Shown: positions 15,606 through 52,139, counted from the stretch's first letter. The stretch is DNA of 64,000 nucleotides from an uncultured virus (IMG/VR IMGVR_UViG_3300042351_001072) (IMGVR_UViG_3300042351_001072), one strand, 5' to 3'. A program made the numbers and translations. The notes: a model not told the origin generated them from the letters alone.

Positions 15606-16514
15606 TTAATGTATCCAATTACCATCCTCATCTATGCAAAAATGTTTACTATCCTCATAGAATTCATGGATTCTATCTACAAAGTGTTCAGAAATAAAAT
15701 TATATATATCTTGATAAGATTCATTATCATTGTCGTCCCATTCTAAATTAAATAAGGATTCATATAAATTATCAGCGGTGTAATCCATCACACGATCCAC
15801 AAAATCAATTACATCAGGATAGATACAAACATCATAACGTGAAAGAGCTCTATCAATAAACTCACTAATTTGTTGGTATCGTCTTTGAAACATTATTTTA
15901 TCGTAGGCTTCATTGATGTTTTCACCATCTCTTTTAGTATTTCTATCCCAAAACTCTTTTAATTCCGTATAGAAATTATTTTTAATGAATCGTATTAATT
16001 GATTTCTATACATAACATAATCATCTTCAGGTATGTTCATTTTACTAACAACCTGACTTGCGACATCCCAAGATATTTGAATTAAAAAACTATCAAAGGT
16101 ATCCATAACATTTAATTTATGAGTTAAAATAAAATCCGAAATGCCATCTTCAATTTCTTCATACCTTCGTTTGAATTTTAATTCGTGTGATGATTCATTA
16201 ATTTTTTTATCCATACGAGAATAAAAATATTCTCTAATCATATCCATATATTCTGTTTCTATAAACCGTTGTATTTGTTTTTTTAATGCCTCTTTTTTAT
16301 CGGAATCAAAAATTGATTCCTTATTAAGAATTTGATTTGGAATCTTAGTGGTTATAACTTGAATAAATGTATCATATTCACTCATTTTTAAAGGAGTTGG
16401 ATCACCAAATTGTAAATACTCATAAACATTATCCATTACAGGTCCAATTAAATTCTCTACTTGAGAAGCCCTACGCATTAAACTGTACTGATTTTCTGTT
16501 ATTATTATTTTCAT
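15606..16514 (-). CDS. Three-domain polyprotein of the RR acidic family
   Basis: MKIIITENQ leader; units start at MRRA, KRRY, QRRY and are separated by KINE and NINE. Confidence 0.8.
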   Translation of the reverse strand: MKIIITENQYSLMRRASQVENLIGPVMDNVYEYLQFGDPTPLKMSEYDTFIQVITTKIPNQILNKESIFDSDKKEALKKQIQRFIETEYMDMIREYFYSRMDKKINESSHELKFKRRYEEIEDGISDFILTHKLNVMDTFDSFLIQISWDVASQVVSKMNIPEDDYVMYRNQLIRFIKNNFYTELKEFWDRNTKRDGENINEAYDKIMFQRRYQQISEFIDRALSRYDVCIYPDVIDFVDRVMDYTADNLYESLFNLEWDDNDNESYQDIYNFISEHFVDRIHEFYEDSKHFCIDEDGNWIH

Positions 16515-16515
16515 A

Positions 16516-16926
16516 TTAACAATGTTTTTTTGCCCAAGATGTATAAGTATTTTTTATCTGTTCACCAATCATATTTTTTAACTCATCATTTAAATCTGAC
16601 CACTCCCAACTTTTTAAGTTGTGATTAAACATCAATGAGTCAGTCACTTCTTCAAGTATATAATCCATATATTCATCCAGTTCATCATAGTCTTCACAAT
16701 CAAGATTACTTTCAATAAAATGGTGCATCTCATTCATAATAACATCATATCTCCTGATAAGCGCATTCTTCAAACTTGAATAGTATTCTTTGTGGTTATC
16801 CGATTCCTGTAAGTTATAATCCTCATCATCAAAACCTTCATTACAATTTTTATTATCAACAAGTTCTCTGATTTTTTCATACCTACGTATAAACTCTATT
16901 TGGCTTTCAGTTAATATTATATTCAT
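16516..16926 (-). CDS. RR..C..C family protein (truncated first unit + full second unit)
   Basis: Start reassigned to MNIILTESQ at 16926. Confidence 0.8.
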   Translation of the reverse strand: MNIILTESQIEFIRRYEKIRELVDNKNCNEGFDDEDYNLQESDNHKEYYSSLKNALIRRYDVIMNEMHHFIESNLDCEDYDELDEYMDYILEEVTDSLMFNHNLKSWEWSDLNDELKNMIGEQIKNTYTSWAKKHC

Positions 16927-16927
16927 C

Positions 16928-17251
16928 TTAACATTCTCCACTATATTCATCCCACAATGAAACCAATTCATCGTAGTACTCATCGTTCATTAATTGTTCA
17001 ATCTCTTCTCTTCCGTTATCTTCATACTCATCCTCATCGTCAAAAGTATCATCCTCTCTCTCATAGTTTTCATCACCATAAAAGAAACTTATCCCTTCGT
17101 TAATACAAAAATCAGCATACTCCTCACCATCATCAAAATTGCAAGGATCTTGGATTTCCATTTGGTATTCAATGGTATCTCTAACTTCTTGAATCCTTCT
17201 TAATCTTTTAAGAAGTGATTGACTCTGCATCTCTGTTATTATTATTTTCAT
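16928..17251 (-). CDS. RR..C..C acidic family protein
   Basis: MKIIITEMQ; LRR, DPC, terminal C. Confidence 0.82.
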   Translation of the reverse strand: MKIIITEMQSQSLLKRLRRIQEVRDTIEYQMEIQDPCNFDDGEEYADFCINEGISFFYGDENYEREDDTFDDEDEYEDNGREEIEQLMNDEYYDELVSLWDEYSGEC

Positions 17252-17252
17252 A

Positions 17253-17504
17253 TTAACTAATTAAATCTTCAAAATTATCTTCAATGAATTGTTGTAACTG
17301 ATCAAAATTTTCTCTATTGTTCTTAATGTTATTATCTGGATCATCCAAATATGTCCATGGGGAGTGGTCTATTGTAATCTCTCTTGCCTTATTTGGTGAT
17401 TCACCTTGATCCAATAAATAATTATAATCAGACCTAACCCAATCTTTTATTTCTTGGTATCTTCTTATTAATTGTAATTGAGATTCTGTTATAATGATCT
17501 TCAT
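17253..17504 (-). CDS. RR family protein (no Cys pair)
   Basis: Start at MKIIITESQ; TATTTAT 5 nt upstream. Confidence 0.8.
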   Translation of the reverse strand: MKIIITESQLQLIRRYQEIKDWVRSDYNYLLDQGESPNKAREITIDHSPWTYLDDPDNNIKNNRENFDQLQQFIEDNFEDLIS

Positions 17505-17576
17505 ATTAGATAAATATATCATAAGGGTAAAAATAACCCCCGTCTTTTGAACGAGGGTGATTATTACTCCTGTATT

Positions 17577-17888
17577 TTACTTGTTTTCTTCATAATACCT
17601 TTTAGTCTCATCAAAAAATATTAAATCAAACTCTTTTGCTAATTTTTTACCAACTCCAACCTCATTTTCATCACCAAGATCATAAAAATTTGGCATATCG
17701 TACATAATAAATTCTATAACCGAATCTTTTACGGTGTCGTAATAACGTTCAAATCCTTCGTTTTTTCCAAATTTATTGTTATACCACGTTGGAACCTGAT
17801 CTTCAAGTTCTCGTTCAAAGATTGGAAGTATATGTAGATACCTCCTTTTTATGTAATTATATTGTGATTCTGTTAGAATTATTACCAT
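17577..17888 (-). CDS. RR family protein (no Cys pair)
   Basis: MVIILTESQYNYIKRRY. Confidence 0.8.
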   Translation of the reverse strand: MVIILTESQYNYIKRRYLHILPIFERELEDQVPTWYNNKFGKNEGFERYYDTVKDSVIEFIMYDMPNFYDLGDENEVGVGKKLAKEFDLIFFDETKRYYEENK

Positions 17889-18181
17889 CTTGGACACTTT
17901 TCACTTATAAAATCATAATAAAACTTCTTTATTATGTCAGTTAGGTCATACATTAACTCATTTCTGAAGTTCGCCCAATCTCTTGAGTCAATATCCAAAC
18001 CATCTTTATCTATCACCTCATCAATTGCGTAGTTTATTAGATCTCTTTTGTATCTGTCAAAATCATGATACGCACTATAATAACAAGGATCAGAACGATC
18101 CATACGGTTATAAACCTCATTTTTAATTGAGGAATAACGTCTTAGTAGTGCGTTTTGGTTTTCTGATATTATTATTTTCAT
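17882..18181 (-). CDS. RR..C..C family protein
   Basis: MKIIISENQ; LRRY, DPCYY, EKC. Confidence 0.82.
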   Translation of the reverse strand: MKIIISENQNALLRRYSSIKNEVYNRMDRSDPCYYSAYHDFDRYKRDLINYAIDEVIDKDGLDIDSRDWANFRNELMYDLTDIIKKFYYDFISEKCPRW

Positions 18182-18253
18182 ATTATATAAATACCATATA
18201 AAACAAAAAACCCCACTCATAAGAATGGGGTTTTAATAATTTATAAATATATA

Positions 18254-18937
18254 TTAATATCGTCCAGCAGCTCTAGCTTTTGAATACATTGTTTTTAAAT
18301 CCAATTTTAAATTTTCGAAATCATTGTCATCCAAGATAGAATATTGTCCTTTTCCTTCAAACCCAAAAGAAGTACGAACAAGTATTTGAGGACAACTTTT
18401 AATACATTCATTCATTTGTGATATATTTACTTTAAATCTTGAGTCGTCCGGATTTAAAAACTCCCATGCAACTTTAGTTCCTGGGTCATACGGACTGTTT
18501 GTTGGTGCAGGTGCTGGTGGATAATAAGTCGTAGCCCCATAATTAACTTGTTTAAAACCATATTTAATAGTACTATTAATCATAACTATAAATTGATATA
18601 ATTCACTTAATCTATCAAGAGAATTAGCCTTGAATGTTTTCCCTACACATCCCTTCAATGACGTACAACCTTGAACCTCACCTTGACCCATATTTTCATC
18701 TTCTTTAATATTACGTTTTGATTTATGTTTTACATCCCTATCTTCCATGTCTCTAACAATAGATAATATATCCTCAAGTTTAGATAATGATTTTTTCTTA
18801 TCTTCATCGTTAATTGAATTTCTCAATGAATGTAATAATGTATATAAATCTTTTTCTTTTGAAGAAGATTCTTCATTAATAACCCTCTTAATAATATTGG
18901 TTAAATCTCTTTCTGTAAGTTTTACAATTTTTTTCAT
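18254..18937 (-). CDS. Leader-bearing protein (LTExDL class), two segments joined at IKE
   Basis: MKKIVKLTERDLTNIIKRVINE. Confidence 0.8.
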   Translation of the reverse strand: MKKIVKLTERDLTNIIKRVINEESSSKEKDLYTLLHSLRNSINDEDKKKSLSKLEDILSIVRDMEDRDVKHKSKRNIKEDENMGQGEVQGCTSLKGCVGKTFKANSLDRLSELYQFIVMINSTIKYGFKQVNYGATTYYPPAPAPTNSPYDPGTKVAWEFLNPDDSRFKVNISQMNECIKSCPQILVRTSFGFEGKGQYSILDDNDFENLKLDLKTMYSKARAAGRY

Positions 18938-18992
18938 AAATTTCTTGTTTTATTATAAATATTAGGTAATTAAAAAAAGATTTTTTTATTTA

Positions 18993-19319
18993 CTAATTAG
19001 ATCTACCACATTTACGGATAAACATATTTCTAATATGGTTACCATAATTGTCCTCAACAATTTTATATAACATACTGGTGTCCACATCTGAACCTCCTTG
19101 TTCGGAATTATCGTGAAAAAAATTCCAATTTTGACTGACGAACTCCTCAATGGATCTGTCCCTAAGATTTTCTAAAAATGTATTTGGGTTATTATTATCA
19201 CACCACCATGAACCATCTTCATTTAGTTCATACCCTTCAATCTGATCTTCAACAATCTCAATAAATTGTTGTAATCTTCTAAGGACATAGTTTTGGTTTT
19301 CAGTTATTATAATTTTCAT
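18993..19319 (-). CDS. RR..C..C family protein
   Basis: MKIIITENQ; LRRL, WWC, RKC. Confidence 0.82.
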   Translation of the reverse strand: MKIIITENQNYVLRRLQQFIEIVEDQIEGYELNEDGSWWCDNNNPNTFLENLRDRSIEEFVSQNWNFFHDNSEQGGSDVDTSMLYKIVEDNYGNHIRNMFIRKCGRSN

Positions 19320-19681
19320 AATTCAAATATATTAAATAAATCCGATTCATCATCATCGTCTTCATCACATTCACGATCCCTCCATTCCCGTTGGATTCTG
19401 TTTCGATGTTTACTAACAATTACGTCAGCAACAAAAGCCTCAAGTGGGTTGGTATCAGAAGGATCTCCACCGTAAAGTTCAATATATGAATTAATAAATG
19501 TTGCCACAGACTCATTAACCACGTTAGTTTCATAACTATTATATGTGTTATAATAACAAGCGTTGGTATAATCAAATCCTTCAATAACAATATCCTTTAA
19601 GTGATCCATTAATTCACGGTCATTCAATCTCCTACGTAACCATAGGATTTTATTTTGGGATTCGGTTATAATTATTTTCAT
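19316..19681 (-). CDS. RR..C..C family protein
   Basis: MKIIITESQ; LRRRL, NACYY, REC. Confidence 0.82.
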   Translation of the reverse strand: MKIIITESQNKILWLRRRLNDRELMDHLKDIVIEGFDYTNACYYNTYNSYETNVVNESVATFINSYIELYGGDPSDTNPLEAFVADVIVSKHRNRIQREWRDRECDEDDDDESDLFNIFEL

Positions 19682-20070
19682 GATATAGTGTCAATATAAA
19701 TCCCGTATTCAATAGTTATTAATTCTTGTGCATAATTAACTGAACTAACGAGTACACCCCTAAGTGATTGATCAAGTTTAACTACATTTAATTTTTGATC
19801 AAAACTTAATCTGCTAATTGAATTATGAATACTATTTTTATATCTTTCTATTTCATTTAATATATTTATGGATTCAAAATCACAATTGTAACATTCTATA
19901 TCAATAACTTTAACGTATAACGCAATTTCATGAATATTTCCAATATTATCAGGAACAATATCTATTTCCCATTTGATATCATCTCTAATGTTTCTCAATA
20001 TTGATCTTGATATTATAATTTCTTTTATAAGATCAATTTTTTCCATTATTTCTTTTGAATATCTACTCAT
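19678..20070 (-). CDS. Hypothetical protein
   Basis: Overlaps both neighbouring genes by a few bases. Confidence 0.7.
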   Translation of the reverse strand: MSRYSKEIMEKIDLIKEIIISRSILRNIRDDIKWEIDIVPDNIGNIHEIALYVKVIDIECYNCDFESINILNEIERYKNSIHNSISRLSFDQKLNVVKLDQSLRGVLVSSVNYAQELITIEYGIYIDTIS

Positions 20071-20524
20071 CTAATTTTCTTTTTTTTCTTCCCTGACAAT
20101 ATGCTTTTTGAGAAAAACCTTTAGGGTTATTACATTTTATTGATTTTTTAAATTTTTGTGACCACTTTTCATCAATCTCATCTTTATACCCATCCCAATC
20201 ATCATCGTCATCATCATCTGATTCAAAACGTGACATAATATAGTCACCGTATTCGTCCTTTATGTATTCAATAATTTCATTCACATCAATATCATCAGGT
20301 AGTTTCATATCCTGTACAACCCAAATAATAATGTTATCCGCAAATTCAAACTCATCATCAAATAAAGTCTCATCTTCCTCAACCTCGTCAATGTTCTTAT
20401 CTATAAGTTCATCAATAAGTGAGGACCTTCTTTTCATAAATAAATCTAATTCATCATCTCCAGATTGTTCACCAACAATACCCCTTAATAGTTTGGACTG
20501 TTCTTCCGTAATTATTATTTTCAT
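20063..20524 (-). CDS. RR family protein with appended basic Cys-pair peptide
   Basis: MKIIITEEQ; C-terminal IDE-KWSQKFKKSIKCNNPKGFSQKAYCQGRKKR. Confidence 0.8.
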   Translation of the reverse strand: MKIIITEEQSKLLRGIVGEQSGDDELDLFMKRRSSLIDELIDKNIDEVEEDETLFDDEFEFADNIIIWVVQDMKLPDDIDVNEIIEYIKDEYGDYIMSRFESDDDDDDDWDGYKDEIDEKWSQKFKKSIKCNNPKGFSQKAYCQGRKKRKLDE

Positions 20525-20560
20525 AATAATAAATATATCGTAAAACAAAAAATCCCCTTA

Positions 20561-21025
20561 TTAAAAGGGGATCATTTTATCAAGTCCTTCAATGACTATT
20601 CCACACTGTTCGTATAATTCGTAGTTCAAGTCGGTTGTGTTCTTTGCCCTCATTGTTACCACCTGATGTTCCTCCTTTGTGATTGCAACGGTGGATCCGT
20701 ACTCAACCAAGAAAACAACAAACTCATCCAACGTCATGTTTTTATTTTCGGACAACTTCTCAAACAATATTTTCATTGCGTGTTTTCGTTGGATGAAATG
20801 GTCGTGTACGGGTTTACCCCCATTAATCACACCATTTGATTCCAATCCCGTTCTGAAATAAGAAATGTTTGTTAAATCAAATAATGGATTTCTGTTCAAT
20901 GAGAAAAAATTATCCAAATCAGTAGGGTCATTCTTAATAGATTCGTAGAGATCAATCTGACATTTGAAAATATTCAATGTCATATCAATCTTTTTAATCT
21001 GAGCATCCTTAAGTCTAACTTTCAT
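20561..21025 (-). CDS. Hypothetical protein
   Basis: Clean ORF; HDHF..EEH possible metal site. Confidence 0.7.
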   Translation of the reverse strand: MKVRLKDAQIKKIDMTLNIFKCQIDLYESIKNDPTDLDNFFSLNRNPLFDLTNISYFRTGLESNGVINGGKPVHDHFIQRKHAMKILFEKLSENKNMTLDEFVVFLVEYGSTVAITKEEHQVVTMRAKNTTDLNYELYEQCGIVIEGLDKMIPF

Positions 21026-21042
21026 CTTCTTACTTTTTAAAT

Positions 21043-21219
21043 TTATGATTTACCTTTCCATTCTTTCCAAGTGTCAAAATCTTTGAGATTTTCCATTTGT
21101 TTTTCCATCCATTTAGCACCTGCAATAAAATCTAATTTAGTTGAATCCTCAGGAATAGTTCCATTCCAATCTTCAACATACTTTTCAGCAGCCTCTTCAA
21201 GTGTTTCTTTATTCACCAT
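21043..21219 (-). CDS. Small phage protein (ETLEEAAE..FIAGAKW motif)
   Basis: Motif typical of small Bacteroidota-phage proteins; start likely MVNKET. Confidence 0.7.
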   Translation of the reverse strand: MVNKETLEEAAEKYVEDWNGTIPEDSTKLDFIAGAKWMEKQMENLKDFDTWKEWKGKS

Positions 21220-21730: not shown

Positions 21731-21745
21731 ACCGCAAATATATAA

Positions 21746-22021
21746 CTAAAAATTGGATTTATCCAAATTATCTTTCTTTAAGTGAACGTCGGAAAATGAT
21801 TCAACATTAATGAACTCAGATTCCAGATAACTAATAACACCTCTAAGGGCTTCTGCTTGCAATTTAGGGGTCTCTTTTCCACGAATAGATAGCGCGACAC
21901 CTCCACATAGGACGGACAGTATTTCATCCATATTCATACCCTTCTGAGCTGATATGTCATAAAAAAATTTGTTGTCTTTTAATGTTACTTCCACGGCAAC
22001 GATTAATTTATTTTCTTCCAT
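21746..22021 (-). CDS. Hypothetical protein
   Basis: Clean ORF. Confidence 0.7.
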   Translation of the reverse strand: MEENKLIVAVEVTLKDNKFFYDISAQKGMNMDEILSVLCGGVALSIRGKETPKLQAEALRGVISYLESEFINVESFSDVHLKKDNLDKSNF

Positions 22022-22081
22022 GAATTAATAATAAGAAAAAAATATGAAATAAAAAACCCCACTGATGAGGTGGGGTTGAAA

Positions 22082-22369
22082 TTAATCTTTATGTTTATTC
22101 CAAAATCTTATCATACTCTGTAAATAATTTTGAGTAACAAAATCCTCAAACTTATAGACTTCCCTAAGTTCAACGTCCCCATATAAATCCATATTATGAA
22201 CATCCCAAAAATAATTAGATAATGTCTCATTAATTACGTTTACTTCAAAGTCTCTGAACATTGAATTCTTTTCCTTGACCCATATCGCCATACTATTAAG
22301 AAGTTCTTTCTCAAATAATTCTTTATTGAATCGTCTTTTAAAAAATGTTGGTAGTTCGTTAAAATTCAT
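22082..22369 (-). CDS. RR family protein (LPTFFKRR subtype)
   Basis: FFKRR similar to N-terminus of 55007..55810; TATTTAT upstream. Confidence 0.75.
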   Translation of the reverse strand: MNFNELPTFFKRRFNKELFEKELLNSMAIWVKEKNSMFRDFEVNVINETLSNYFWDVHNMDLYGDVELREVYKFEDFVTQNYLQSMIRFWNKHKD

Positions 22370-22589: not shown

Positions 22590-22925
22590 CTACATACATT
22601 TGTATGTCTCTTGATCATAAAATACTCTTGCTTTATCATAGTATATGTCATACATTATTTCCTTCATATTCATTATGAAAGCTTCAAATTTTCTTGTATC
22701 ATCTTGATTTCTTAAACTTAATAAACCAGGATCATCTGAGATAATTTGATACACAACTCTATCACGAACATCGTCATAATAATCTCTAAAACCATAATAC
22801 TCATTAGACATATAATCACAAGGGTCATATTGATACATTACTTTTTCAATAAGATCATTAACACGACCAAACCTTCTTTTAATTAATAGATCAACAAATT
22901 GTGATTCAGTTATAATAATTTTCAT
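22590..22925 (-). CDS. RR..C..C family protein; tandem paralog of 22956..23294
   Basis: MKIIITESQFVDLLIKRRFGR, YDPCDY. Confidence 0.85.
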   Translation of the reverse strand: MKIIITESQFVDLLIKRRFGRVNDLIEKVMYQYDPCDYMSNEYYGFRDYYDDVRDRVVYQIISDDPGLLSLRNQDDTRKFEAFIMNMKEIMYDIYYDKARVFYDQETYKCM

Positions 22926-22955
22926 ACAACAATAAATATACGGAGAACACCACTT

Positions 22956-23294
22956 TTATTCCTCATCACAACCTTCTTCCAAAGTATTGTCAAAATATTC
23001 TCTAACCTTATCATGAAATATTTCATACATCCATTTATCCGTAGTTTCCGAGAAGTCCTCAATCTTAGACATATGTCTTTCTTCCCAATCTAACTGTAGA
23101 TCTTCGGTAATAATATCGTGAATAACTGCGTTACGAACGTCACCAAAGTAATCATAAAAACCGTAGTATGAGTCATACGTATAATCACAAGGGGGGTAGT
23201 AGTCCATCTTTTCAATAACAAGTTGATCAATACGACCAAATCTTCTTTTAAAGAAAAGATCAACAAATTGTGACTCAGTAATAATGATTTTCAT
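22956..23294 (-). CDS. RR..C..C family protein
   Basis: MKIIITESQFVDLFFKRRFGR, YPPCDY. Confidence 0.85.
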   Translation of the reverse strand: MKIIITESQFVDLFFKRRFGRIDQLVIEKMDYYPPCDYTYDSYYGFYDYFGDVRNAVIHDIITEDLQLDWEERHMSKIEDFSETTDKWMYEIFHDKVREYFDNTLEEGCDEE

Positions 23295-23295
23295 A

Positions 23296-24117: not shown

Positions 24118-24139
24118 AATAGTATAAATATATCAAGAA

Positions 24140-24280: not shown

Positions 24281-24571
24281 TTAACATATTTCTTCAAAAG
24301 AATCGTAGTGTTCCCTGATCCTACCATCAAACATAGGTATTAAAACATTATCTCTAAAGTCATCAACCTCGTCAATTGTTTTAAACACATTATTCAGTTG
24401 TTCACGTGTAAGAATCATACCAAGGGTTTCATTAATAACGACTCTTCTATATTGTTTATAATGAACATATTCACAAGGGTCATTAAATGGTAATAGTTCC
24501 TCAAGATAAGTCCCAAAAAGATCCATCCTTCTCAATAGACTATTTTGTGACTCAGTGATTATAATTTTCAT
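24281..24571 (-). CDS. RR..C..C family protein
   Basis: MKIIITESQ; LRRM, DPCEY, terminal C. Confidence 0.82.
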   Translation of the reverse strand: MKIIITESQNSLLRRMDLFGTYLEELLPFNDPCEYVHYKQYRRVVINETLGMILTREQLNNVFKTIDEVDDFRDNVLIPMFDGRIREHYDSFEEIC

Positions 24572-28214: not shown

Positions 28215-28514
28215 TTAGTCATCACACTCATTAATCCAAAAATCATAATGAGACATTATCATTCTACCAAACTTCCTCTCAATAAAATTATATATGTATT
28301 CAACACCCTCATCACTTAGATTAAACAAAGGTTCATACGAATTGATAAACGTATGTGTTGCCCCATAAACTATGGCGTAAAGAAATTCACTCCCACGACC
28401 AATATAACTACAGGGGTCGTCGTAATCAAAACCCTCATCAACAATCTCACCAAGGTGTTTCATTGTATAAGGATCATTAACCCTCCTGACAAACCATACC
28501 AATTTATTATCCAT
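28215..28514 (-). CDS. RR..C..C family protein without leader
   Basis: MDNKLVWFVRRVND..EGFDYDDPCSY; closest to 19316..19681. Confidence 0.8.
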   Translation of the reverse strand: MDNKLVWFVRRVNDPYTMKHLGEIVDEGFDYDDPCSYIGRGSEFLYAIVYGATHTFINSYEPLFNLSDEGVEYIYNFIERKFGRMIMSHYDFWINECDD

Positions 28515-29191: not shown

Positions 29192-29539
29192 TTATAGGTA
29201 TTTGTGATATCTATGATCCAATCTCCTAAGGATAAACCCTTTTAAACTTTTTGGTATATCCCCAAAAGGTATAGAATAATATTCTTTTACATCGTTAGGT
29301 ATTTCCTCGGACTCACCATATGAAATCAATCCGTGTTGAAACTCATCTGTATATAGTTGAATCAATATTTCCTTAGTATCAAAATGTATCTCAACAACAT
29401 AAGCCTCATCACTACCGTTATATAATTCAATCCCCAATTCATTAACCACTCCATCAGGTACTTTAAGCCAAAGAGGTTCCGTCTCAGTTAAAGATTCCAT
29501 CAATACACCCCTAACTATTTTTCTTAACTTATTACCCAT
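29192..29539 (-). CDS. Leader-bearing hypothetical protein
   Basis: MGNKLRKIVRGVLMESLTE. Confidence 0.75.
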   Translation of the reverse strand: MGNKLRKIVRGVLMESLTETEPLWLKVPDGVVNELGIELYNGSDEAYVVEIHFDTKEILIQLYTDEFQHGLISYGESEEIPNDVKEYYSIPFGDIPKSLKGFILRRLDHRYHKYL

Positions 29540-29871
29540 TATATACAACCTCTTGTTCTCTCTTTATAGAAGTTCCTAATCTTATCACCATGTTCATCCA
29601 TTAACATATTAATAAATCTCTCATAACCAATGTCGTCATGTATAAAATCAATCGTATCATAAATATGATAGTTGGGATGTTCATATTGTTCACCAATCTC
29701 ATAAACAATACCCTCAACAAATCTTCTTAACGTGGGATAATTAACACAGAAGTCAACACCCTCATAAAAACCAACATCGTCAATCATATACTCCGCCTCA
29801 TACATAATATCTCTTATCCTTCTAAGATAAGATAATTTCTTATTTTGATTCTCAGTAATAATAATCTTCAT
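29539..29871 (-). CDS. RR..C..C family protein
   Basis: MKIIITENQ; LRRI, DFC, RGC. Confidence 0.82.
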   Translation of the reverse strand: MKIIITENQNKKLSYLRRIRDIMYEAEYMIDDVGFYEGVDFCVNYPTLRRFVEGIVYEIGEQYEHPNYHIYDTIDFIHDDIGYERFINMLMDEHGDKIRNFYKERTRGCI

Positions 29872-29884: not shown

Positions 29885-30163
29885 TTAACATTTACGTTCG
29901 TAGTATAATTCGGTTAACTCAACATAAAACATTTTCTTTAGTTCAGACATAATCCCATCATAATCAAAAGTGTTAATCAAATAATATACAGGATGAAGTT
30001 CACCCATCATTATTAATACAAATTTTCTTTCATAATCAACAAAAGAAGTAAACTTACAAGGATTAACATAACTAACCGCCTCATCAAAACTATCCTTGAC
30101 CAAATCGTATCTTCGTAGTAACCATATTTTATTATATTGTGACTCAGTAATAATAATCTTCAT
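29885..30163 (-). CDS. RR..C..C family protein
   Basis: MKIIITESQ; LRRY, NPC, terminal C. Confidence 0.82.
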   Translation of the reverse strand: MKIIITESQYNKIWLLRRYDLVKDSFDEAVSYVNPCKFTSFVDYERKFVLIMMGELHPVYYLINTFDYDGIMSELKKMFYVELTELYYERKC

Positions 30164-37177: not shown

Positions 37178-37522
37178 TTATCTAATGATTTGTTTGGTCT
37201 CTTCCCTTCTTATTCTTGTTATGGATTCTTGTAAATTCAACCTGCCCCTTACATATTTAACAAGTGGCCTTTCATATTTCAAATAAGATTCCCAATAATC
37301 CGCATCAGGACCAAACTCATATATGTCTGGGAACTTTCTTGATTTAATAAATTCTCTTGTACCATCGTAGATTGCAGTATCCAAACTCTCACCATAATCA
37401 ATCAATTCTTTAACATCATTGACCAACCACTCAAGGTCCTCTTGAGTAAGCCTTCTTCGGATATATATTGGTAAATCAGTTTCTTCCTTTAATACTTTCC
37501 TTATGTGTTCCTGTAATCTCAT
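37178..37522 (-). CDS. RR family protein (MNLQE class leader) with leader remnant at C-terminus
   Basis: MRLQEHIRKVLKEET..IRRRL; ends LNLQESITRIRREETK. Confidence 0.8.
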   Translation of the reverse strand: MRLQEHIRKVLKEETDLPIYIRRRLTQEDLEWLVNDVKELIDYGESLDTAIYDGTREFIKSRKFPDIYEFGPDADYWESYLKYERPLVKYVRGRLNLQESITRIRREETKQIIR

Positions 37523-37869
37523 CTAATTAATACATTATACATTGATGTAATCCTTTCTTGATAGTGTTTGGTTAACTGTTTGGCTAAACCATCAATTATC
37601 TCTTCAGACATTTCTCCACCATAAAAATACTGTCTTACACTTAATGAAGTTAAAAGATCCATTATAACCATTCTTGAGAACTCTTCTTCTGTTAATAAAC
37701 CTGGATCTGACTTAAAACTTTTTATAAATATTTTTGACACATAATGTAATGATGACCCAAATTCCTCATCCATCTTTTCTAAAATCCTTGAAGGTATTCT
37801 ACGTAACATCATTCTTATGTAGTTAGTCTCCTCCTTTAATACTTTCCTTATTTGTTCCTGTAGATTCAT
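37519..37869 (-). CDS. RR family protein (MNLQE class)
   Basis: MNLQEQIRKVLKEET..LRRI. Confidence 0.8.
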   Translation of the reverse strand: MNLQEQIRKVLKEETNYIRMMLRRIPSRILEKMDEEFGSSLHYVSKIFIKSFKSDPGLLTEEEFSRMVIMDLLTSLSVRQYFYGGEMSEEIIDGLAKQLTKHYQERITSMYNVLIR

Positions 37870-38186
37870 TTTTTTAAACCTTTATATAGATCCCTTATTA
37901 TATCATCAAAATAATCGGAAACCTCCGTAACAAATTCTATTTCTTCTTGTTCAGGTAAATCTTCCCATCCCAATTCATATGTATTATACATAATTGCTTC
38001 CACCGCCCGTAAAGTTAACTCATATTTAAATTGTTTGTAACTTTTTGTTTCAAAAAACACTTGTCGTGAGTTAGTTGGAAGTAACAATTTAACCACATCT
38101 AAATTAATTCTTCTATGAAAGAACTTTGATTCATTAATGGTACCCATCATTGATTGTATTCTTGATATTTGCTCGTGTAGGTTCAT
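37866..38186 (-). CDS. RR family protein (ISRIQSMMG class)
   Basis: MNLHEQISRIQSMMGTINE-SKFFHRRI; body similar to N-terminus of 55007..55810. Confidence 0.8.
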   Translation of the reverse strand: MNLHEQISRIQSMMGTINESKFFHRRINLDVVKLLLPTNSRQVFFETKSYKQFKYELTLRAVEAIMYNTYELGWEDLPEQEEIEFVTEVSDYFDDIIRDLYKGLKK

Positions 38187-39437: not shown

Positions 39438-39770
39438 TTAGTCTCCACAATTAATGTGAAAGTATTCTTTTATTTTTTCTCCGTATTTGTCTTTAATATA
39501 ATTTTCAATATCATTATATATTTCATTCCATAATTTTCCATTATCATCCAAATTTGAAAAATGATTAAAATACATAAAGTCAATCACCGATTGTATTATA
39601 CGATCCAATAAGTCTTCACCAGTTATATGTCTACATATATTATCAGGCATATAAACCTCTTTCATTAATCTATAAAATTCATTATCAATTACCCCCAATC
39701 TTCTTCTGAGATAAATGTTTATCTTTGTTTCCTCTTTGAGTATCCTTCTTATTGTCTCTTGTAGGTTCAT
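39438..39770 (-). CDS. RR..C..C family protein
   Basis: MNLQETIRRILKEET; LRRRL, PDNIC, INC; paralog of next gene but with a different leader. Confidence 0.82.
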   Translation of the reverse strand: MNLQETIRRILKEETKINIYLRRRLGVIDNEFYRLMKEVYMPDNICRHITGEDLLDRIIQSVIDFMYFNHFSNLDDNGKLWNEIYNDIENYIKDKYGEKIKEYFHINCGD

Positions 39771-40126
39771 TACTTTCTTTTTTTTAAACAATTATCCACA
39801 TAGTAATTTCTTATCTCATCACCATATTTAGAGTTTACATATTTAACCATATCATCGTATATATTAGGCCAATCTTCTCCCATATTACTAAAATAATTAA
39901 AATACATAGAGTCAATAGATCCCCCGATTATATTTTCAAGTAAGTCTTCTTCATCATTATATTGATGACATATTGTATCAGGAGCATAAAAACCTTTACC
40001 CAATCTAGATTCAACTTCATAATCCAACATTTCTATTCTTCTCCTAAGAGAGTTGGATAGTTTTCTTTCTTCTTTTAATAGTCTCTTTAATGAATTATTT
40101 TGACTCTCTGTGATAATAATTTTCAT
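39770..40126 (-). CDS. RR..C..C family protein
   Basis: MKIIITESQ..LLKEE; LRRRI, PDTIC, DNC. Confidence 0.82.
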   Translation of the reverse strand: MKIIITESQNNSLKRLLKEERKLSNSLRRRIEMLDYEVESRLGKGFYAPDTICHQYNDEEDLLENIIGGSIDSMYFNYFSNMGEDWPNIYDDMVKYVNSKYGDEIRNYYVDNCLKKRK

Positions 40127-43416: not shown

Positions 43417-44199
43417 TTATGAATTTTTTTCACATTCCTCTTTCACCTGAATAAAGATATCAGTTAATTCACGTTTCTTATAGTCAAGAATATAATCAGG
43501 AACATTCTTTTTTACCATCATATAAACATCATCATCAAACTTCGTTCTTGCCACCCATATAACATCATCTATTATAGCTTCAATAAACTCACCTGACGTT
43601 CTATAATCACATGGGTACACCTCCTCCAATACCGCTCTAATTAAAAGATCCAATTCATTTATTCTTCTCTTAAACTCATTTGAAAACTTTCTTTCTTCTG
43701 TGACATTTTCTGTGACATTATCTATGACATCTTCTGTGTCATCTTCCATATCTTCATTCTCAATAACATGACAATCTAAAGATATTTTTGGTTTTGTACT
43801 AAAAAATACTGGGTGACCCACATCCCTAACATCAAAGGGAAAAAGCCTTTTAAACTTATCTAACATAATTTGTTTATACCAACTATCTATATGTGAAACA
43901 TTATCATCAAAATAATGTTTTAAATGCACATCAATAATTTTACCACCTGATCTTCCAGTTCTTTCTTCTATAAACAACACTTCTACACCTTCCACATTTT
44001 CAGAATAAATAAAATCCTTAACTAACTTAGCCTGATCGTTAATGTCATCAATATCAATTTCCAATATTTTCGCTAACCTTTTAAATCCACCAACAGTTTT
44101 TGACGCTCGTTGAATACCGTCAGTCTTAATTAGATCAGTTAAACTATCTTTTAATGTTTCTTCATTTAATATTTTTCTTATACGTTCTTTTAGTTTCAT
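43417..44199 (-). CDS. Leader-bearing two-domain polyprotein ending in an RR..C..C unit
   Basis: MKLKERIRKILNEE; N-domain start shared with 44797..45282; VTEE-RKFSNEFKRR..YPCDY..EEC. Confidence 0.8.
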   Translation of the reverse strand: MKLKERIRKILNEETLKDSLTDLIKTDGIQRASKTVGGFKRLAKILEIDIDDINDQAKLVKDFIYSENVEGVEVLFIEERTGRSGGKIIDVHLKHYFDDNVSHIDSWYKQIMLDKFKRLFPFDVRDVGHPVFFSTKPKISLDCHVIENEDMEDDTEDVIDNVTENVTEERKFSNEFKRRINELDLLIRAVLEEVYPCDYRTSGEFIEAIIDDVIWVARTKFDDDVYMMVKKNVPDYILDYKKRELTDIFIQVKEECEKNS

Positions 44200-46143: not shown

Positions 46144-47001
46144 TTATTTAACCCATTTTGAATTTTTTAATTCTGAGATAGGGTAAAATCCGTCGGCATA
46201 TTTGTCGTAACCACTTCCAAAAAATTTACCTCTATCAATTTTGTCTTGCCAATTATTAAATTGTGTGGTATACTTCCATAATTCATCTTTATCTGTCATA
46301 TAACCATTATTTTTAAGATAAGCACCAACCATTCCTCCAGTTCTATCCGCACCGTGAGCACAGTGAATTAATGTATCACCTTGGTTTAAAATGTCACTAG
46401 TTTGTTGTATTGATGAAGTATAACCTTTACCTAATTTAAATCCACTATGAGCATTAATAAAATGGTAAGTACAATCATTTTCCTCACATATTTTTTTTTC
46501 AGTTTCTCCAAGTGTTTTAGAATGGGAACTTATATGTCTAGAATCAGAATCTGTATCTCCGTTCATTCTCACTATATTTTTTATACCATATTTTTTAATT
46601 ACTGAAGGTAATACATCTGCAGTTATTTGAGCTGATCTCCAATTATTTGTCCCTCCAGGTATTTTATGAAATTTAAATTCTTTTAAATCACTAACATCCA
46701 CATCATCCACATACTCTTGTGCCATTTCAGTTTTTTTTGATTCAAACTCTTCTGGTGGTATTTCTTCTTTGTAAGATTCATGTGCTGCCTTTGTAATTGG
46801 ACCATATATTCCGTCAATACCATCTTTACTGTCACCAAATTTCCCAATATAATATCCTTTATTGATTAATTCTTTTTGGATTTCAATTACTTTTGGATCA
46901 TATTTGTAAGAAATATCCATATCAATATCTTTTATCTCAGTTTCTTCTGTGATAAGTCCCATCATTTCTCTAATTCTTTGTATGTTCTCTTGTAAGTTCA
47001 T
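46144..47001 (-). CDS. Leader + peptidoglycan-binding domain + Cys-based (tyrosine/dual-specificity) phosphatase
   Basis: IDGIYGPIT; WRSAQ; IHCAHGADRTG (CX5R). Confidence 0.85.
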   Translation of the reverse strand: MNLQENIQRIREMMGLITEETEIKDIDMDISYKYDPKVIEIQKELINKGYYIGKFGDSKDGIDGIYGPITKAAHESYKEEIPPEEFESKKTEMAQEYVDDVDVSDLKEFKFHKIPGGTNNWRSAQITADVLPSVIKKYGIKNIVRMNGDTDSDSRHISSHSKTLGETEKKICEENDCTYHFINAHSGFKLGKGYTSSIQQTSDILNQGDTLIHCAHGADRTGGMVGAYLKNNGYMTDKDELWKYTTQFNNWQDKIDRGKFFGSGYDKYADGFYPISELKNSKWVK

Positions 47002-47579: not shown

Positions 47580-48281
47580 TCAATTACTTGAAGAATGGTC
47601 CCAATGCCATGGTTCACTTGATAAGGGTTTGAAGTTGAATCTTGACGCATTATCAACTAACCATGTATGAACTTTACTACCTCTCCTACAATGTTTAACG
47701 TCTATTGCACTACCTTTACCATGATTTGATGTGCCAGGTTTTGCGGCTCTATTACCTTTCCCTGATTTATATTTTATCCATGCACACCACTGAGTAAAAC
47801 CTTTACCACAACCTTCTTCTCTACTACCTAAAGGTCTATAACCTTGAGAAACTTTAATTTCAATCTTACCATCAGTTTCATCGTATGCCGTTTTAACCAT
47901 ATCATTATAGTCTTTAGCAGCTAAAGGATTTAATTTGTTTTTTGTTTGATTACCATCAGGATCCAACAAATTAACTAATTGTCCATCAGGTATATTACCG
48001 TTACTACTTTTTTCACTATCTAATTCAATATCATAATATTCATCATCAACACTATCAATACCATTTTCTTTCTCCAATTTATCTTTTTCCTCATCACTCA
48101 AATTCTTAATTTCATCAACATCAGTGGTTCCAAATTTATCCTGAATGAATGATTTAATATCTTGACTAACATTTGAACTTTGTAACATATCAATAGTATC
48201 ATCAATAAAACCTTCATTTAAATTATATAATCCCCTAATTTGTTTTCTTTCGTTTTCAGAAATAAGAAATCTTTTTGACAT
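47580..48281 (-). CDS. Leader-bearing M15-family zinc peptidoglycan peptidase (VanY-like)
   Basis: SQGYR, AAKPGTSNHGKGSAID, EPWHW. Confidence 0.85.
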   Translation of the reverse strand: MSKRFLISENERKQIRGLYNLNEGFIDDTIDMLQSSNVSQDIKSFIQDKFGTTDVDEIKNLSDEEKDKLEKENGIDSVDDEYYDIELDSEKSSNGNIPDGQLVNLLDPDGNQTKNKLNPLAAKDYNDMVKTAYDETDGKIEIKVSQGYRPLGSREEGCGKGFTQWCAWIKYKSGKGNRAAKPGTSNHGKGSAIDVKHCRRGSKVHTWLVDNASRFNFKPLSSEPWHWDHSSSN

Positions 48282-48403: not shown

Positions 48404-49120
48404 TTAAAGGACGTTTATTATTTTCCAATTACCATCAAAATCTTCCACAAGACAGGTTGAGTTTTCACAGAAATCACCTGAATTCATATAGTCATTCTCT
48501 ATCTTAGGTTGGTGAATATGCCCACACACCGCAACATCATATCCCTTCTGTTTTGTTAGACCTTTTGCGTTTTCCTCAAAATCAGATACAAAGTTAATTG
48601 CACCTTTTACTGATTGTTTTATTGTATTTGCTAATGAATGATATGGTAATTTAAACCACTTTCTTATTTTGTTGTATATTGTATTAAACTTAATCACAAT
48701 ATCATATGACCATCCACCAATTACCGCCAACCATCTTGCCTCCATTATAACGAAATCTAATACATCCCCGTGAAAACAAAAATACTTTCTATCATCTATC
48801 CCTGTATGTATATACTTCCTTACAATCCTAATGTTGTTTAATTTAAATGGAATGAAATCTTTTAAAAAGTCATCATGGTTTCCCCTTATATAAATTACCT
48901 TTGTATTCTTCTCAGACATCTTCATGAACTTTCTGAATATCTTGGTACAATCCTTTGTCCATTTACCATTACCTTTGAGAGCCCAACCATCTATTATATC
49001 ACCGTTCAATATTAGTTTTTCGGTTGTGTTATTATCCAAGAAACTTATTATCTTATCTGTCTGTGATTGTCTTGATCCTAAGTGTAAATCACTCATGATT
49101 ATCGTTTTCCAATTATTCAT
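48404..49120 (-). CDS. lpxH: LpxH-like metallophosphoesterase (UDP-2,3-diacylglucosamine hydrolase family)
   Basis: SDLHLG, GDIID, GNHD, HGD, GHIH, NSGD. Confidence 0.8.
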   Translation of the reverse strand: MNNWKTIIMSDLHLGSRQSQTDKIISFLDNNTTEKLILNGDIIDGWALKGNGKWTKDCTKIFRKFMKMSEKNTKVIYIRGNHDDFLKDFIPFKLNNIRIVRKYIHTGIDDRKYFCFHGDVLDFVIMEARWLAVIGGWSYDIVIKFNTIYNKIRKWFKLPYHSLANTIKQSVKGAINFVSDFEENAKGLTKQKGYDVAVCGHIHQPKIENDYMNSGDFCENSTCLVEDFDGNWKIINVL

Positions 49121-49824
49121 TCCCAATATCCTTTATCATCCTCAAAATGATTTTTATTATTCCTGTTGAAGAATGAACTAACCATAAGTTTTAACATATA
49201 CCACACACCTTTCTGTTTGAACCTTCTTGGACTTGTGAATACCGTTGTATTCATGATATAAAACTTGCTTGGTTTAACTTGTTTGGAGAATAGATAATCC
49301 TCAGCAACTCTTGCGTTTTCATCAAACCCACCGATTGTATTATATACTTCTTTCTTAACCATCATAAACCCACCAAGACAAAATGGTGTTATTGGTTTGA
49401 ATACCTTTTGTATGGTATCAAACAATCTGAATATACTATTATACTCACCCGTTGTTGATCTTACTTTACACGTAATCAAATCTGTGTTATGTAATAAGAA
49501 CTCTAACATACAATTGTTTAATATGTCAAAATCCAATAAGAATATGTCGGCATCCAAAAATAGGACATAAGGTGTTTCCACATTCTTTGCTCCCTTATTT
49601 CTTGCAACAGACGGAAGTCCTCCTGAAATAATCTGTAGATTAAAATAATCTGATCTTCTATTTTCCAAAGAATAGGATGTATAATCATCATCCGATGAAT
49701 CACAAACAATAACTCTAACATCTTGTATTCCCTTTTGAAAGTTTAATAAGGACAACGTTTGTTCTATTATCTTACCCTCGTTCTTACAAGGGATTACAAT
49801 GGTCAATAAATTTGATAAATCCAT
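49117..49824 (-). CDS. Glycosyltransferase family 2
   Basis: IVIPCKNE, ARNKGA, FLDAD, GGFDE..AED, TSPRRF. Confidence 0.88.
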   Translation of the reverse strand: MDLSNLLTIVIPCKNEGKIIEQTLSLLNFQKGIQDVRVIVCDSSDDDYTSYSLENRRSDYFNLQIISGGLPSVARNKGAKNVETPYVLFLDADIFLLDFDILNNCMLEFLLHNTDLITCKVRSTTGEYNSIFRLFDTIQKVFKPITPFCLGGFMMVKKEVYNTIGGFDENARVAEDYLFSKQVKPSKFYIMNTTVFTSPRRFKQKGVWYMLKLMVSSFFNRNNKNHFEDDKGYWE

Positions 49825-49886
49825 AATAATAAGTATAATTCATATTACACTTATTATATAACTTAACAATTTAATAATAAATATTT

Positions 49887-50708
49887 TTATGTAATAAAAT
49901 TGGTTACGTAACCTAACGCACCCCAGTGATTAACACCATCTGGAGTATCTGTTGATCCTGGAACAACACCTTTACCTCTAAAGTCTGTTGATCCTGTAAT
50001 AACATTTTCATTTGGGACTCCCATAGAAACCGCATCATTTACTGAATCAAATACACTTGATGCCTTAGCGTAAGATTCTACAATAAATAACCTATCTTTG
50101 TATTTGATCTCTTCTGCAATCTGTGAAGAGTATTTACACGCAGCACTAAATAAAACAACATAAGACTCAGGGTTTTTTCTAATAGCATCTAATACTCCCT
50201 GTAAATTGTTATACCTAAAACCTATAATATTTTTATTTGGTAATTTATTTTTTAATACTTCAACTTGTTGGTCTATATTAAGATCACCAGGTCTTGTATC
50301 TAAACCACCCATTAATATAACATCACCACTTGAGACATTGGTTTGTGAATCATCTTCTTTCTCAGGTTCGTCAACTTTTTTAATTATATCAATTGATTTA
50401 GAGTCAGTTTTACAAAAATCAGGTGTAACCCACTCAACTTTTCTATCCTCCAAATCTTTTAATTTACCTTTTGTTATATCCCCAACAATCCCGTCACTAT
50501 CAATTTCCATTGCTTTTTGGAACTCTTGGACACAGGATTTTGTTTGTCTACCAAATTCACCATCTTTATGAATACCTAATAATTCTTGTAGTAATTCAAC
50601 CTCATCACCGCTTGACCCTATTTTTAAGATAGATGTTATATCTGATACGGATTCAGTTATGATCCCCATCATTTCTTTAATTCTTTGTATGTTTTCTTTT
50701 AGGTTCAT
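49887..50708 (-). CDS. Leader + peptidoglycan-binding domain + alpha/beta-hydrolase-like domain
   Basis: MNLKENIQRIKEMMGIITE; GSSGDEVELLQ..DGIVGDIT; VLFSAA..HW. Confidence 0.7.
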   Translation of the reverse strand: MNLKENIQRIKEMMGIITESVSDITSILKIGSSGDEVELLQELLGIHKDGEFGRQTKSCVQEFQKAMEIDSDGIVGDITKGKLKDLEDRKVEWVTPDFCKTDSKSIDIIKKVDEPEKEDDSQTNVSSGDVILMGGLDTRPGDLNIDQQVEVLKNKLPNKNIIGFRYNNLQGVLDAIRKNPESYVVLFSAACKYSSQIAEEIKYKDRLFIVESYAKASSVFDSVNDAVSMGVPNENVITGSTDFRGKGVVPGSTDTPDGVNHWGALGYVTNFIT

Positions 50709-50899
50709 ATATTATAAATATATTAAAAACAAAAAAGGAAATCTAAAATAGACTTCCTTTTTTGTAATAAGTGTGTATAACAAATGATAAACAACATTAA
50801 AACGATTGTTTATCATCGGACGTTATGTGTAAGTGTTCTGTTCATCGTTCTAATCAACATTTCAGTTGAAAATTTTAAAAGAAAAATCCCACCCACATT

Positions 50900-51490
50900 T
50901 TATAACAATCCGTCTTTTATTATGTTTTCTTTTGGTATGTGTGGTATTTTATTTGATAAAACTAAAACTTCTTCTTCATCCCTAAATCTATTTTCGTCTA
51001 ATCCAATATAATCTATGACATTATTTATATCAAATAAAACATCATCATTATTTACATTAAATTTAAACACAATATAATATTTATATCTTCTTTTTGATGT
51101 TTTCAATAAAACTGATTTTATTCCCTTTAATGATTTTGAACAAGCATAATATTTTTGATTTTCCAAAACATCAAACCCATTTTTTAAAACCTTTTCATAC
51201 AAAGTTTTGCTTTTAGTTTGAAATACTCTATATAAAACACCTTCATATTTTAATTCTTGTGGTATATTTCCTTTAAAATAATTTATAAAAATATCAATGT
51301 TTTCAACACTGTCCAATATAGTTCCACCATCTAAATGATAAAGTAATTTATCCTTAAAAATATTTTTGTTTTCGTTTAAGAACTCCTTAAAATTCTTAAC
51401 TTTATCAATCATTTGTCTTATTTCTTTGCTCATAATTTTATCTTTAGTTTCTTCCCTTAATATTCTTTGTATGTTTTCAAATAAATTCAT
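50900..51490 (-). CDS. Double-leader ADP-ribosyltransferase-like protein
   Basis: MNLFENIQRILREET then MSKEIRQMIDKVKNFKEFLNE; LYRV..ACSKS..DEEEVLV (R-S-ExE pattern). Confidence 0.6.
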   Translation of the reverse strand: MNLFENIQRILREETKDKIMSKEIRQMIDKVKNFKEFLNENKNIFKDKLLYHLDGGTILDSVENIDIFINYFKGNIPQELKYEGVLYRVFQTKSKTLYEKVLKNGFDVLENQKYYACSKSLKGIKSVLLKTSKRRYKYYIVFKFNVNNDDVLFDINNVIDYIGLDENRFRDEEEVLVLSNKIPHIPKENIIKDGLL

Positions 51491-51494
51491 ATTT

Positions 51495-52139
51495 TTAAAA
51501 TTCAATAGTAATTGTGTTAGGAAGTTTACTTAAACGATTAAAATGCTCCTCACAACTTTTACGATTATTGTCATTGTCGTCGTATCTGTCATCAATGGTC
51601 ATAACAATAATATCCACACCTTTGAAGGTATTTCGTAATTTCTTTTGAATAAATGATTCGTACTTATCCATAGTATATTTTATTTTAGTTACAATTGCAA
51701 CCAAATAAAGTTTATTTCTACCTACGGTAACTGAAACAAAACAAGGTTTATAATTTGACCTACTTAAATATTCACCACTCACTCCATCAATATATTCAGC
51801 AATAAATTCAATTTTTTTTAGGTCTGATGGTTTAACATCTTTATCTTCAGATTCATTTATATATTCATCACAACTTAATTGTGCGTTTTCAAAGTAATCC
51901 AAAAACTCCTCAAAATATCTTTCTCTTATTAAATGATGCAGATCAATTGCAATATTATCATCCTCTAAATTGTTATTATTTACAAAGTTTTCTACCACCC
52001 AATTAGTTATCTCCCTGAAGTATATATAAAACTTATCTTCATCGTAATCACAAGGTGTTACTTCATGGTAAACCTCATCAATAAGATCATCAATTTGTTT
52101 CAGTCTTCTAAGTAAAAATGGATTAAAACGGTCTTTCAT
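51495..52139 (-). CDS. RR..C..C unit fused via YINE to a second domain
   Basis: PFLLRRL, TPCDY, LSC; second domain also has a Cys pair. Confidence 0.8.
   Translation of the reverse strand: MKDRFNPFLLRRLKQIDDLIDEVYHEVTPCDYDEDKFYIYFREITNWVVENFVNNNNLEDDNIAIDLHHLIRERYFEEFLDYFENAQLSCDEYINESEDKDVKPSDLKKIEFIAEYIDGVSGEYLSRSNYKPCFVSVTVGRNKLYLVAIVTKIKYTMDKYESFIQKKLRNTFKGVDIIVMTIDDRYDDNDNNRKSCEEHFNRLSKLPNTITIEF

Follow-up and report, generated by a model that had tools for sequence, protein, structure and literature searches.

Most known examples of proteins that phages inject to counter host defences come from T4 and P1, in which they are few and mutually unrelated; the anti-defence proteins T7 Ocr and T4 Arn are early products. 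The T4 head protease gp21 has been described as cutting after L/I-X-E, and propeptides of 10-19 residues as targeting internal proteins into the head (PMC9026906), while each of the internal proteins Ip1-3 is reported to block a different variant of GmrSD (PMC12373910). Large paralog families of phage SPN3US were located in the head by mass spectrometry (PMC5694885). Here we describe a family of small acidic proteins, most of them with two conserved Cys residues, in a 64,000-nt stretch of the uncultured virus record IMGVR_UViG_3300042351_001072 (hereafter the window; all coordinates refer to this whole stretch). The family is real and numbers ~25 divergent copies in the window. By analogy with T4, most copies are probably head-tagged cargo delivered into the host at infection.

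The initial annotation listed 16 copies with a Cys pair. We excised 27 candidate units from the open reading frames (ORFs) of the window, and scored each of the 16 Cys-pair units by a hidden Markov model (HMM) built from the other 15, together with 200 shuffles per unit. All 16 ORFs hold the unit and each unit was recognised by the other 15, with scores of 24-56 bits against shuffle maxima of no more than 16 bits; 0/200 shuffles matched the real score in every case. The unit pattern also held, namely hydrophobic-[KR]R, a Cys 19-26 residues past the RR and, after a further 56-74 residues, the second Cys. This RR..C..C pattern occurred in 16/24 family ORFs and 0/76 other minus-strand ORFs. A wider profile, built from 201 domains, gave a window total of 25 units (E<0.01), nine of them Cys-less and the other 16 with the pair. 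Eleven Cys-less or partial candidates were tried in total; of these, 37178 is unsupported (27/200 shuffles scored as high, and the wide profile misses it). The weak member 22082 failed the leave-one-out test (13/200 shuffles), although the wide profile does recover it, and in 16516 only 31 aa of a first unit remain.

A search of 1.84 billion proteins with the 16-unit profile (E<=0.001, representatives of 50%-identity clusters) matched 397 cluster representatives. The best 150 of these, minus two repetitive spurious matches, left 148 proteins with 200 domains, 188 of which could be anchored on the RR. Some members of this 188-domain set are near-copies of window genes, their relatedness is not corrected for, and the source profile, built on Cys-pair units, biases the set; with this bias, 158 domains carried both Cys residues, 22 neither, eight the first only and none the second only, in agreement with the earlier suggestion that the two are kept or lost jointly. 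Across the 201 aligned domains, two Arg were conserved at 99% and 94% and the Cys at 90% and 92%, figures that lean high as the profile was built on these motifs. The remaining columns showed a hydrophobic helical pattern with acids at exposed positions, and a metal site is not favoured, as the alignment has no conserved His or third Cys column. The acidic and Tyr-rich composition noted at first was also borne out: the units have a median net charge of -9.2 per 100 aa against -1.7 in the other window proteins, and 8.6% Tyr against 4.9%.

The common helical fold anticipated in the initial annotation is supported by structural models. AlphaFold2, supplied with 81 sequences, predicted the unit at 39441-39716 with a predicted local distance difference test score (pLDDT) of 93.9 and a predicted template modelling score (pTM) of 0.85, as helices 4-20, 24-27, 33-52 and 61-90. 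Cys28 lies just ahead of helix 33-52 and Cys90 closes the last helix in the model, which would correspond to an up-down-up bundle in which the two Cys meet at one end, and the RR and a variable acidic loop (53-60) lie at the other. The model of the three-unit protein 15606 was less confident (pLDDT 67.9, pTM 0.38), and repeated the three-helix pattern three times, including two Cys-less units; its leader (1-13), linkers (104-116 and 195-208) and loop 256-262 had pLDDT<50. Covariation of the Cys and the helix topology make it plausible that the pair forms a disulfide staple. The five relatives searched had no disulfide oxidase Erv1/Alr above the cut-off, and all five had a thioredoxin, which is uninformative on this point.

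The family matched no named one, as originally stated. Neither Pfam nor PHROGs had anything above the cut-off for the family ORFs (three sub-cut-off rows in the former, one weak tail-terminator row for the doubtful 37178 in the latter), nor had NCBIfam for the six members scanned; PADLOC gave only five sub-cut-off single-member rows of 81 (E 0.0025-0.0064). The best PDB match by sequence had E 0.49. Fold searches reached Z 7.7 at best, with none at 8 or above and thus under the bar for helical bundles, and Foldseek against BFVD and PDB gave no match at E<=0.001; neither result shows the fold to be new. The ESM Atlas held no usable match for one unit and only unnamed viral clusters for 15606, and tblastn of 22956 against GenBank phages found no match. 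Weak leads to the C-terminal domain of T4 RNA ligase 2 (Z 5.7; E 0.059) failed in profile comparison, at a probability of 0.1%. A word search of open-access text found no published description of the family, which supplements or closed journals could hold.

The main clue to the likely route of these proteins, overlooked in the initial annotation, lies in their leaders and linkers. By a hand-made pattern, 20/24 family ORFs begin with an MKIIITE-type or an MNLQE..ILKE-type leader. Unrelated neighbours share these leaders, among them five proteins that bind or cut peptidoglycan. Codons of 18 window leaders vary at silent sites. A motif [ILVM][NTSKRQ]E lies no more than 18 residues before the RR in 147/188 domains, and in 54/70 internal domains, compared with 15% for windows inside domains and 22.5% for shuffled controls; inside the units its frequency drops about sixfold, from 0.060 per site before them to 0.011. 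Both linkers of 15606 carry an IxE that was kept in 120/120 listed orthologues, while the flanking residues vary and carry indels; these are the best 120 of 226 orthologues, 74-100% identical and mutually related, and do not amount to 120 independent events. Units that are free in the window (16928, 17253, 39438 and 39770) occur in other phages as inner segments that follow such motifs, and in two database relatives (P0048, P0145) the unit is fused via a whole internal leader to a pterin-4a dehydratase or an HD domain. The spacing from motif to RR is 6-10 residues in 127/147 cases, and 18/22 leaderless database members start 8-13 residues before the RR; cutting would therefore yield approximately the product that leaderless genes encode directly. 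The conserved internal motifs suggest polyprotein processing by the head protease.

We also observed that 51/107 genes of the minus strand between 6025 and 62186 start, by a hand-made pattern, with a few leader types ending in hydrophobic-x-Glu ahead of unrelated cargo. With about half of its genes bearing leaders, the region looks like a virion-cargo island.

The window is phage DNA, AT-rich (26-34% GC), with densely packed genes nearly all on the minus strand. A syntenic relative, G002, gave the best matches to ten units of the 15606-22956 array at 53-88% identity, and encodes a T4-type major capsid protein (gp23), a head maturation protease (Peptidase_S77), a portal and a terminase. Its capsid protein has SFLINE followed by Ala between propeptide-like and mature-like parts, where T4 gp23 has SFLTE followed by Ala at E65. 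Among cultured phages, the capsids of Microcystis phage Mel-JY01 (42%) and Flavobacterium phage immuto (41%) matched most closely. The gp21-type protease was present in 10/13 records searched, and complete relatives are about 257-309 kb. We infer a Bacteroidota host because the window has a gene with a type IX secretion system (T9SS) sorting domain and TAnnTTTG motifs, which we take to be the Bacteroidota promoter. We regard the source as a T4-like giant lake phage of about 290 kb, probably of Bacteroidota. The T9SS gene (34670-35695) encodes a secreted-type protein with PKD, MopE-like and C-terminal sorting domains, and appears to be a case of a phage gene product that carries the type IX secretion signal of Bacteroidota.

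Family units of a fragmentary record, G001, are identical to those of the window within its span. Words sampled from 15500-25000 were 97-99% present in each of 20 lake-water metagenome runs, which are possible sources. In four lake-water runs, 30/30 bins of 12001-32000 were covered and the longest pieces differed by 0-7 letters; the array is therefore not an assembly artefact. The listed runs containing array sequence include no RNA run. Contig joints clustered near gene starts, but mostly had short sides at 85% likeness, probably from related phages, and were not used.

TATTTAT stands directly before 13/24 family ORFs, 11-13 nt upstream in each (the search covered 42 nt from the start), and the remaining 11 follow a TATTTAT-preceded gene in runs whose gaps are 25 nt or less. 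The host-type motif is at the usual place in only 1/24, 18993, which has TATATTTG 12 nt upstream (19320-19331); its G002 orthologue has TATTTAT, and the two motifs are one base apart. Among 107 window genes, the leader (hand-made pattern) goes with TATTTAT in 26/40 cases and with the host-type motif in 2/11 (p=0.014). TATTTAT also precedes the protease, terminase and scaffold-position genes of G002, and the terminase and portal genes of immuto. For 77 distinct family ORFs in other loci, it was found directly before 35, the host-type motif before two, and neither before 40. TATTTAT may be a late promoter; no publication on the motif was found. The stretch 15000-31500 holds 33 terminator-like hairpins where 6.6 would be expected. 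Many of them are directly followed by TATTTAT and a leader, and many genes begin in a repeated hairpin-TATTTAT-leader cassette at gene borders.

We propose the following course for these proteins. The genes would be transcribed late from TATTTAT promoters, and the leader would carry the protein into the prohead core, by analogy with the T4 capsid targeting sequence. The gp21-type protease would cut after the conserved [IL]xE and remove the leader, splitting tandem or fused ORFs into units of ~10-13 kDa, which would mostly start 6-10 residues before the RR. Once the virion is in oxidising surroundings, the two Cys would form a disulfide that staples the bundle. In the last and weakest step, the units may be ejected together with the DNA and serve as binders, in which the near-invariant RR could be a shared anchor or a structural cap, while the variable acidic surface and the loop between helices 2 and 3 could give each paralog its own host target. 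The likeliest targets would be variants of a defence system, as for T4 Ip1-3 and GmrSD. That the units are packaged and cut is likely in our view. That they are also injected and act as target-specific binders is a tentative claim, a little short of an even chance, and that the target is a defence protein is more doubtful again. The proposal as a whole, in which head-packaged, protease-cut cargo is ejected as target-specific binders, leans slightly to the side of doubt.

Several points count against this proposal. The head genes are known from G002 and not from the window itself, and TATTTAT also stands before phoH in immuto. Leaders are missing from 4/24 family ORFs and 22/188 database domains, and are therefore not required for gene retention. 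The host cytoplasm would reduce a disulfide. T4 internal proteins are basic (net +2, +4 and +9) and Cys-free, unlike the acidic family with its Cys pair, and the family profile showed no homology to IPI, IPII or IPIII (E 0.74-2.4 in a 7-sequence search). Orthologues show no whole-gene positive selection, and lake samples hardly differ in the array, unlike the expectation for a fast arms race. A QueC-type DNA-modification gene was present in 0/5 relatives, and no clear second thymidylate synthase was seen; a Type IV restriction target is therefore without support. Phage immuto, in which modified G has been described (bioRxiv 2023.04.13.536721), has no family member.

The evolution of the family bears on the most serious alternative. 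Window paralogs have a median identity of 19%, and the tree of the 25 window units is star-like, with 2/22 branches well supported and the order of gain or loss of the Cys pair not recoverable; several paralogs persist as separate lineages across phages. For pairs of 60-99.5% identity and dS 0.1-1.5, the ratio of nonsynonymous to synonymous substitution rates (dN/dS) had a median of 0.27 and a range of 0.17-0.63 in the family (15 orthologue pairs, 9 genes), against 0.23 for other ORFs (21 pairs, 12 ORFs), a control set that includes the shadow ORF 21352-21606 with high values; family and neighbours compared at gene level gave p=0.12. Orthologues are thus under purifying selection, as judged from these ratios, and the term 'hypervariable' used in the initial annotation is apt between paralogs but not among orthologues. 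Among 20 records chosen by leader pattern, 11 had family matches. The seven at least 90% complete, two of which look near-identical, had 0, 2, 3, 4, 5, 11 and 11, and phage immuto had 0; the range of 0-11 among these near-complete records argues for accessory status. The set is thus old and has been retained, its stock differs among phages, and the locus is not one that changes fast.

Purifying selection, together with the same leader, promoter and motif evidence, would also suit head-internal, protease-cut proteins that are not directed at the host, i.e., an accessory core or filler that aids prohead assembly or charge balance and stays in the capsid. The fragments of T4 gp67 and gp68, or the assembly role of IPIII, would be its models, and T4 core proteins gp67 and gp22 are acidic as well (net -25 and -28). 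Nevertheless, we consider this explanation unlikely. Core proteins are described as being cut into many pieces (PMC9026906), whereas the cut motif is depleted inside the units, which fold stably in the model; 25 deeply split paralogs, several kept as separate lineages across phages, are left unexplained; some relatives have no copy; and the family genes are distant from the head module in G002.

Packaged and ejected units might instead act in the periplasm or envelope, where a disulfide is stable, against envelope sensors, periplasmic nucleases or inhibitors of phage lytic enzymes, or in superinfection exclusion. The covariation of the Cys would agree with such a site, and leader-bearing neighbours with peptidoglycan-binding, SLT and VanY-type domains (7093, 46144, 47580, 49887 and 57563) must act there. 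Nevertheless, 9/25 window units lack the Cys pair, and no signal or membrane segment was found after the RR, so that we give this alternative a small chance. Substrates of twin-arginine translocation (Tat) have an RR followed by a hydrophobic h-region. A Tat signal was rejected for the 27 units, in which the 18 residues after the RR include 3-9 charged ones and the best 13-residue hydropathy is at most 1.09.

The initial annotation had offered DNA mimicry as one option, with the acidic T7 Ocr and T4 Arn as models; such mimics would occupy the DNA-binding sites of restriction or other defence enzymes. The 16 Cys-pair units do have isoelectric points of 4.05-5.09, 97% of the 188-domain set is net negative, and acids are exposed on the helices. 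Nevertheless, the net charge, -3 to -27 in the Cys units of the window, has a median of just -8 in the 188-domain set; no column of the 201 domains exceeds 67% Asp plus Glu, and the most conserved polar residues are the two Arg. The late-type promoter motif also differs from the early expression of Ocr and Arn. Of the comparisons drawn at first, Ocr and Arn thus fit poorly and we regard mimicry as improbable, while T4 IPI fits well, through the head-protease leader and the late-type promoter, neither of which was part of the earlier argument. An equally remote explanation, that these are late non-virion proteins whose leader hitchhikes with a recombining terminator-promoter-start cassette and whose internal motifs are fusion scars, draws on the repeated hairpin, TATTTAT and leader DNA at many gene starts, like the PeSL cassettes (PMC4122927), on the many linkers that are whole fused leaders, and on the leaderless members, but fails to account for an internal IxE kept 120/120 at both linkers, where no promoter or start role is possible, and for leader codons that vary silently.

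If the units are indeed injected binders, it is attractive to speculate that the phage holds a binder library, in which one stapled three-helix scaffold with dozens of specificities is loaded singly or as polyproteins, cut by the head protease, and injected as a cocktail against variants of host defences or envelope sensors. This extended version is rather unlikely as it stands. With a cleavable tag on every cargo gene, neighbours could fuse or split without changing the mature products. If the proposal is true, one scaffold with ~25 copies per genome region and 397 cluster representatives would offer a large stock of candidate inhibitors acting before phage gene expression, and polyprotein processing would allow virion cargo to be predicted by a sequence rule throughout a widespread group of uncultured phages.

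The family genes are listed below. Several of the ORF bounds given at first do not hold, because the ORFs begin at a later Met (e.g., 16926, 18181, 24571, 28514, 30163 and 39770).

Table 1. Family genes and candidate members in the window.
Feature	Coordinates	Strand	Remarks
Three-unit polyprotein-like ORF, 302 aa	15606..16514	-	Leader, Cys-less 16194-16484, INE linker, Cys-less 15909-16181, INE linker, Cys-pair 15609-15896
Leader + 31-aa unit remnant + LQE linker + Cys-pair unit 16519-16764	16516..16926	-	G002 orthologue has two full units
Leader + Cys-pair unit	16928..17251	-	Most acidic copy, net -27
Leader + short Cys-less unit	17253..17504	-	TATTTAT 12 nt upstream; unit is last segment of polyproteins elsewhere
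Leader + Cys-less unit	17577..17888	-	
Leader + Cys-pair unit	17882..18181	-	TATTTAT 12 nt upstream; terminator-like hairpin 18207-18234 before it
Leader + Cys-pair unit	18993..19319	-	
Leader + Cys-pair unit with acidic tail	19316..19681	-	
Leader + Cys-less unit + unrelated basic tail	20063..20524	-	TATTTAT 11 nt upstream; hairpin 20551-20573
Distant Cys-less unit, minimal leader, weak member	22082..22369	-	TATTTAT 13 nt upstream
Leader + Cys-pair unit	22590..22925	-	More recent duplicate of 22956, 41% identity
Leader + Cys-pair unit	22956..23294	-	
Leader + Cys-pair unit	24281..24571	-	TATTTAT 11 nt upstream; hairpin 24597-24620
Leaderless Cys-pair unit	28215..28514	-	TATTTAT 13 nt upstream; hairpin 28542-28565
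Leader + Cys-pair unit	29539..29871	-	
Leader + Cys-pair unit	29885..30163	-	TATTTAT 11 nt upstream; hairpin 30189-30210
Leader + RR helix, membership unsupported	37178..37522	-	
Longer leader (MNLQE..LKE) + Cys-less unit	37519..37869	-	
Longer leader (..INE) + Cys-less unit	37866..38186	-	
Longer leader + Cys-pair unit 39441-39716	39438..39770	-	Unit used for folding
Double leader + Cys-pair unit	39770..40126	-	TATTTAT upstream; heads gene run 37178-40126
Leader + unrelated N-terminal domain + VTE motifs + C-terminal Cys-pair unit 43420-43680	43417..44199	-	
Leaderless Cys-pair unit 51852-52121 + INE linker + unrelated domain	51495..52139	-	TATTTAT 12 nt upstream
Cys-less unit 55508-55786 + INE linker + unrelated domain	55007..55810	-	Just beyond the range of the initial annotation

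Five neighbouring genes (7093-8289, 46144-47001, 47580-48281, 49887-50708 and 57563-59050) join a leader to peptidoglycan-binding, VanY peptidase, SLT, GDSL or weak phosphatase domains, and are candidates for ejected wall-degrading enzymes. A large Gly/Ala/Lys-rich, paralog-like pair (11037-12761 and 62186-63952) with hydrophobic segments and an N-terminal hydrophobic-x-Glu may encode membrane-channel ejection proteins. By eye, we noticed ADP-ribosyltransferase-like motif spacing in 40294-40668, 45285-45776 and 50900-51490, and HExxH motifs in 44196-44807 and 23296-24117, all unconfirmed and with no library match. The window also carries two sensor histidine kinase genes (308-1630 and 2229-3830), one with PAS domains, and sugar-modifying genes at 12996-15001, 33281-33970 and 48404-49824 (NeuD-like acetyltransferase, keto-acid cleavage enzyme, RmlD-like reductase, LpxH-like phosphoesterase and GT2 glycosyltransferase); by eye, G002 appears to have a larger sugar-modifying cluster. 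An ORF-poor gap of ~800 nt (32456-33281) had no Rfam match, and ARAGORN and Rfam each called one tRNA, at differing places (40183-40277 and 40705-40771).

Compared with described systems, the family resembles Ocr and Arn in being small, acidic and an anti-defence candidate, and differs from them in its late-type motif, protease leader, moderate charge, Arg pair and Cys pair; their folds were not among the listed rows of our fold searches. The PeSL cassettes of T4-like phages, as described in PMC4122927, likewise place a terminator hairpin beside a promoter where genes meet within a variable region, whereas here, as read from DNA alone, the promoter is late-type and the repeat runs into the coding leader. 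Family B of SPN3US/phiKZ (20 members) is also a large set of paralogs from a jumbo phage, with no function assigned, but belongs to another phage group with another protease motif and is not listed as processed; our comparison with it went through the negative Pfam and PHROGs scans only. Polyvalent proteins (Iyer et al. 2017, PMC5512222) carry several cargo domains per chain and are proposed to be packaged and processed, and the fusions of our unit to HD and pterin-dehydratase domains recall them; their proposed cutting is described as mainly by their own metallopeptidase domains, whereas the family would depend on the head protease in trans and repeats a domain absent from Pfam. The closest likeness is to T4 IPI, IPII and IPIII (Ip1-3), which gp21 cuts: both have a short N-terminal leader ending in hydrophobic-x-Glu, both are small, accessory and variable in number among relatives, and both belong to phages with a gp23-type capsid and a gp21-type protease. 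The T4 proteins are described as sharing the leader only, without homology to each other (PMC12373910), whereas the ~25 family copies share one fold and include many tandem or fused units with internal motifs. The family would work like a T4 internal protein, yet is not a member of those families.

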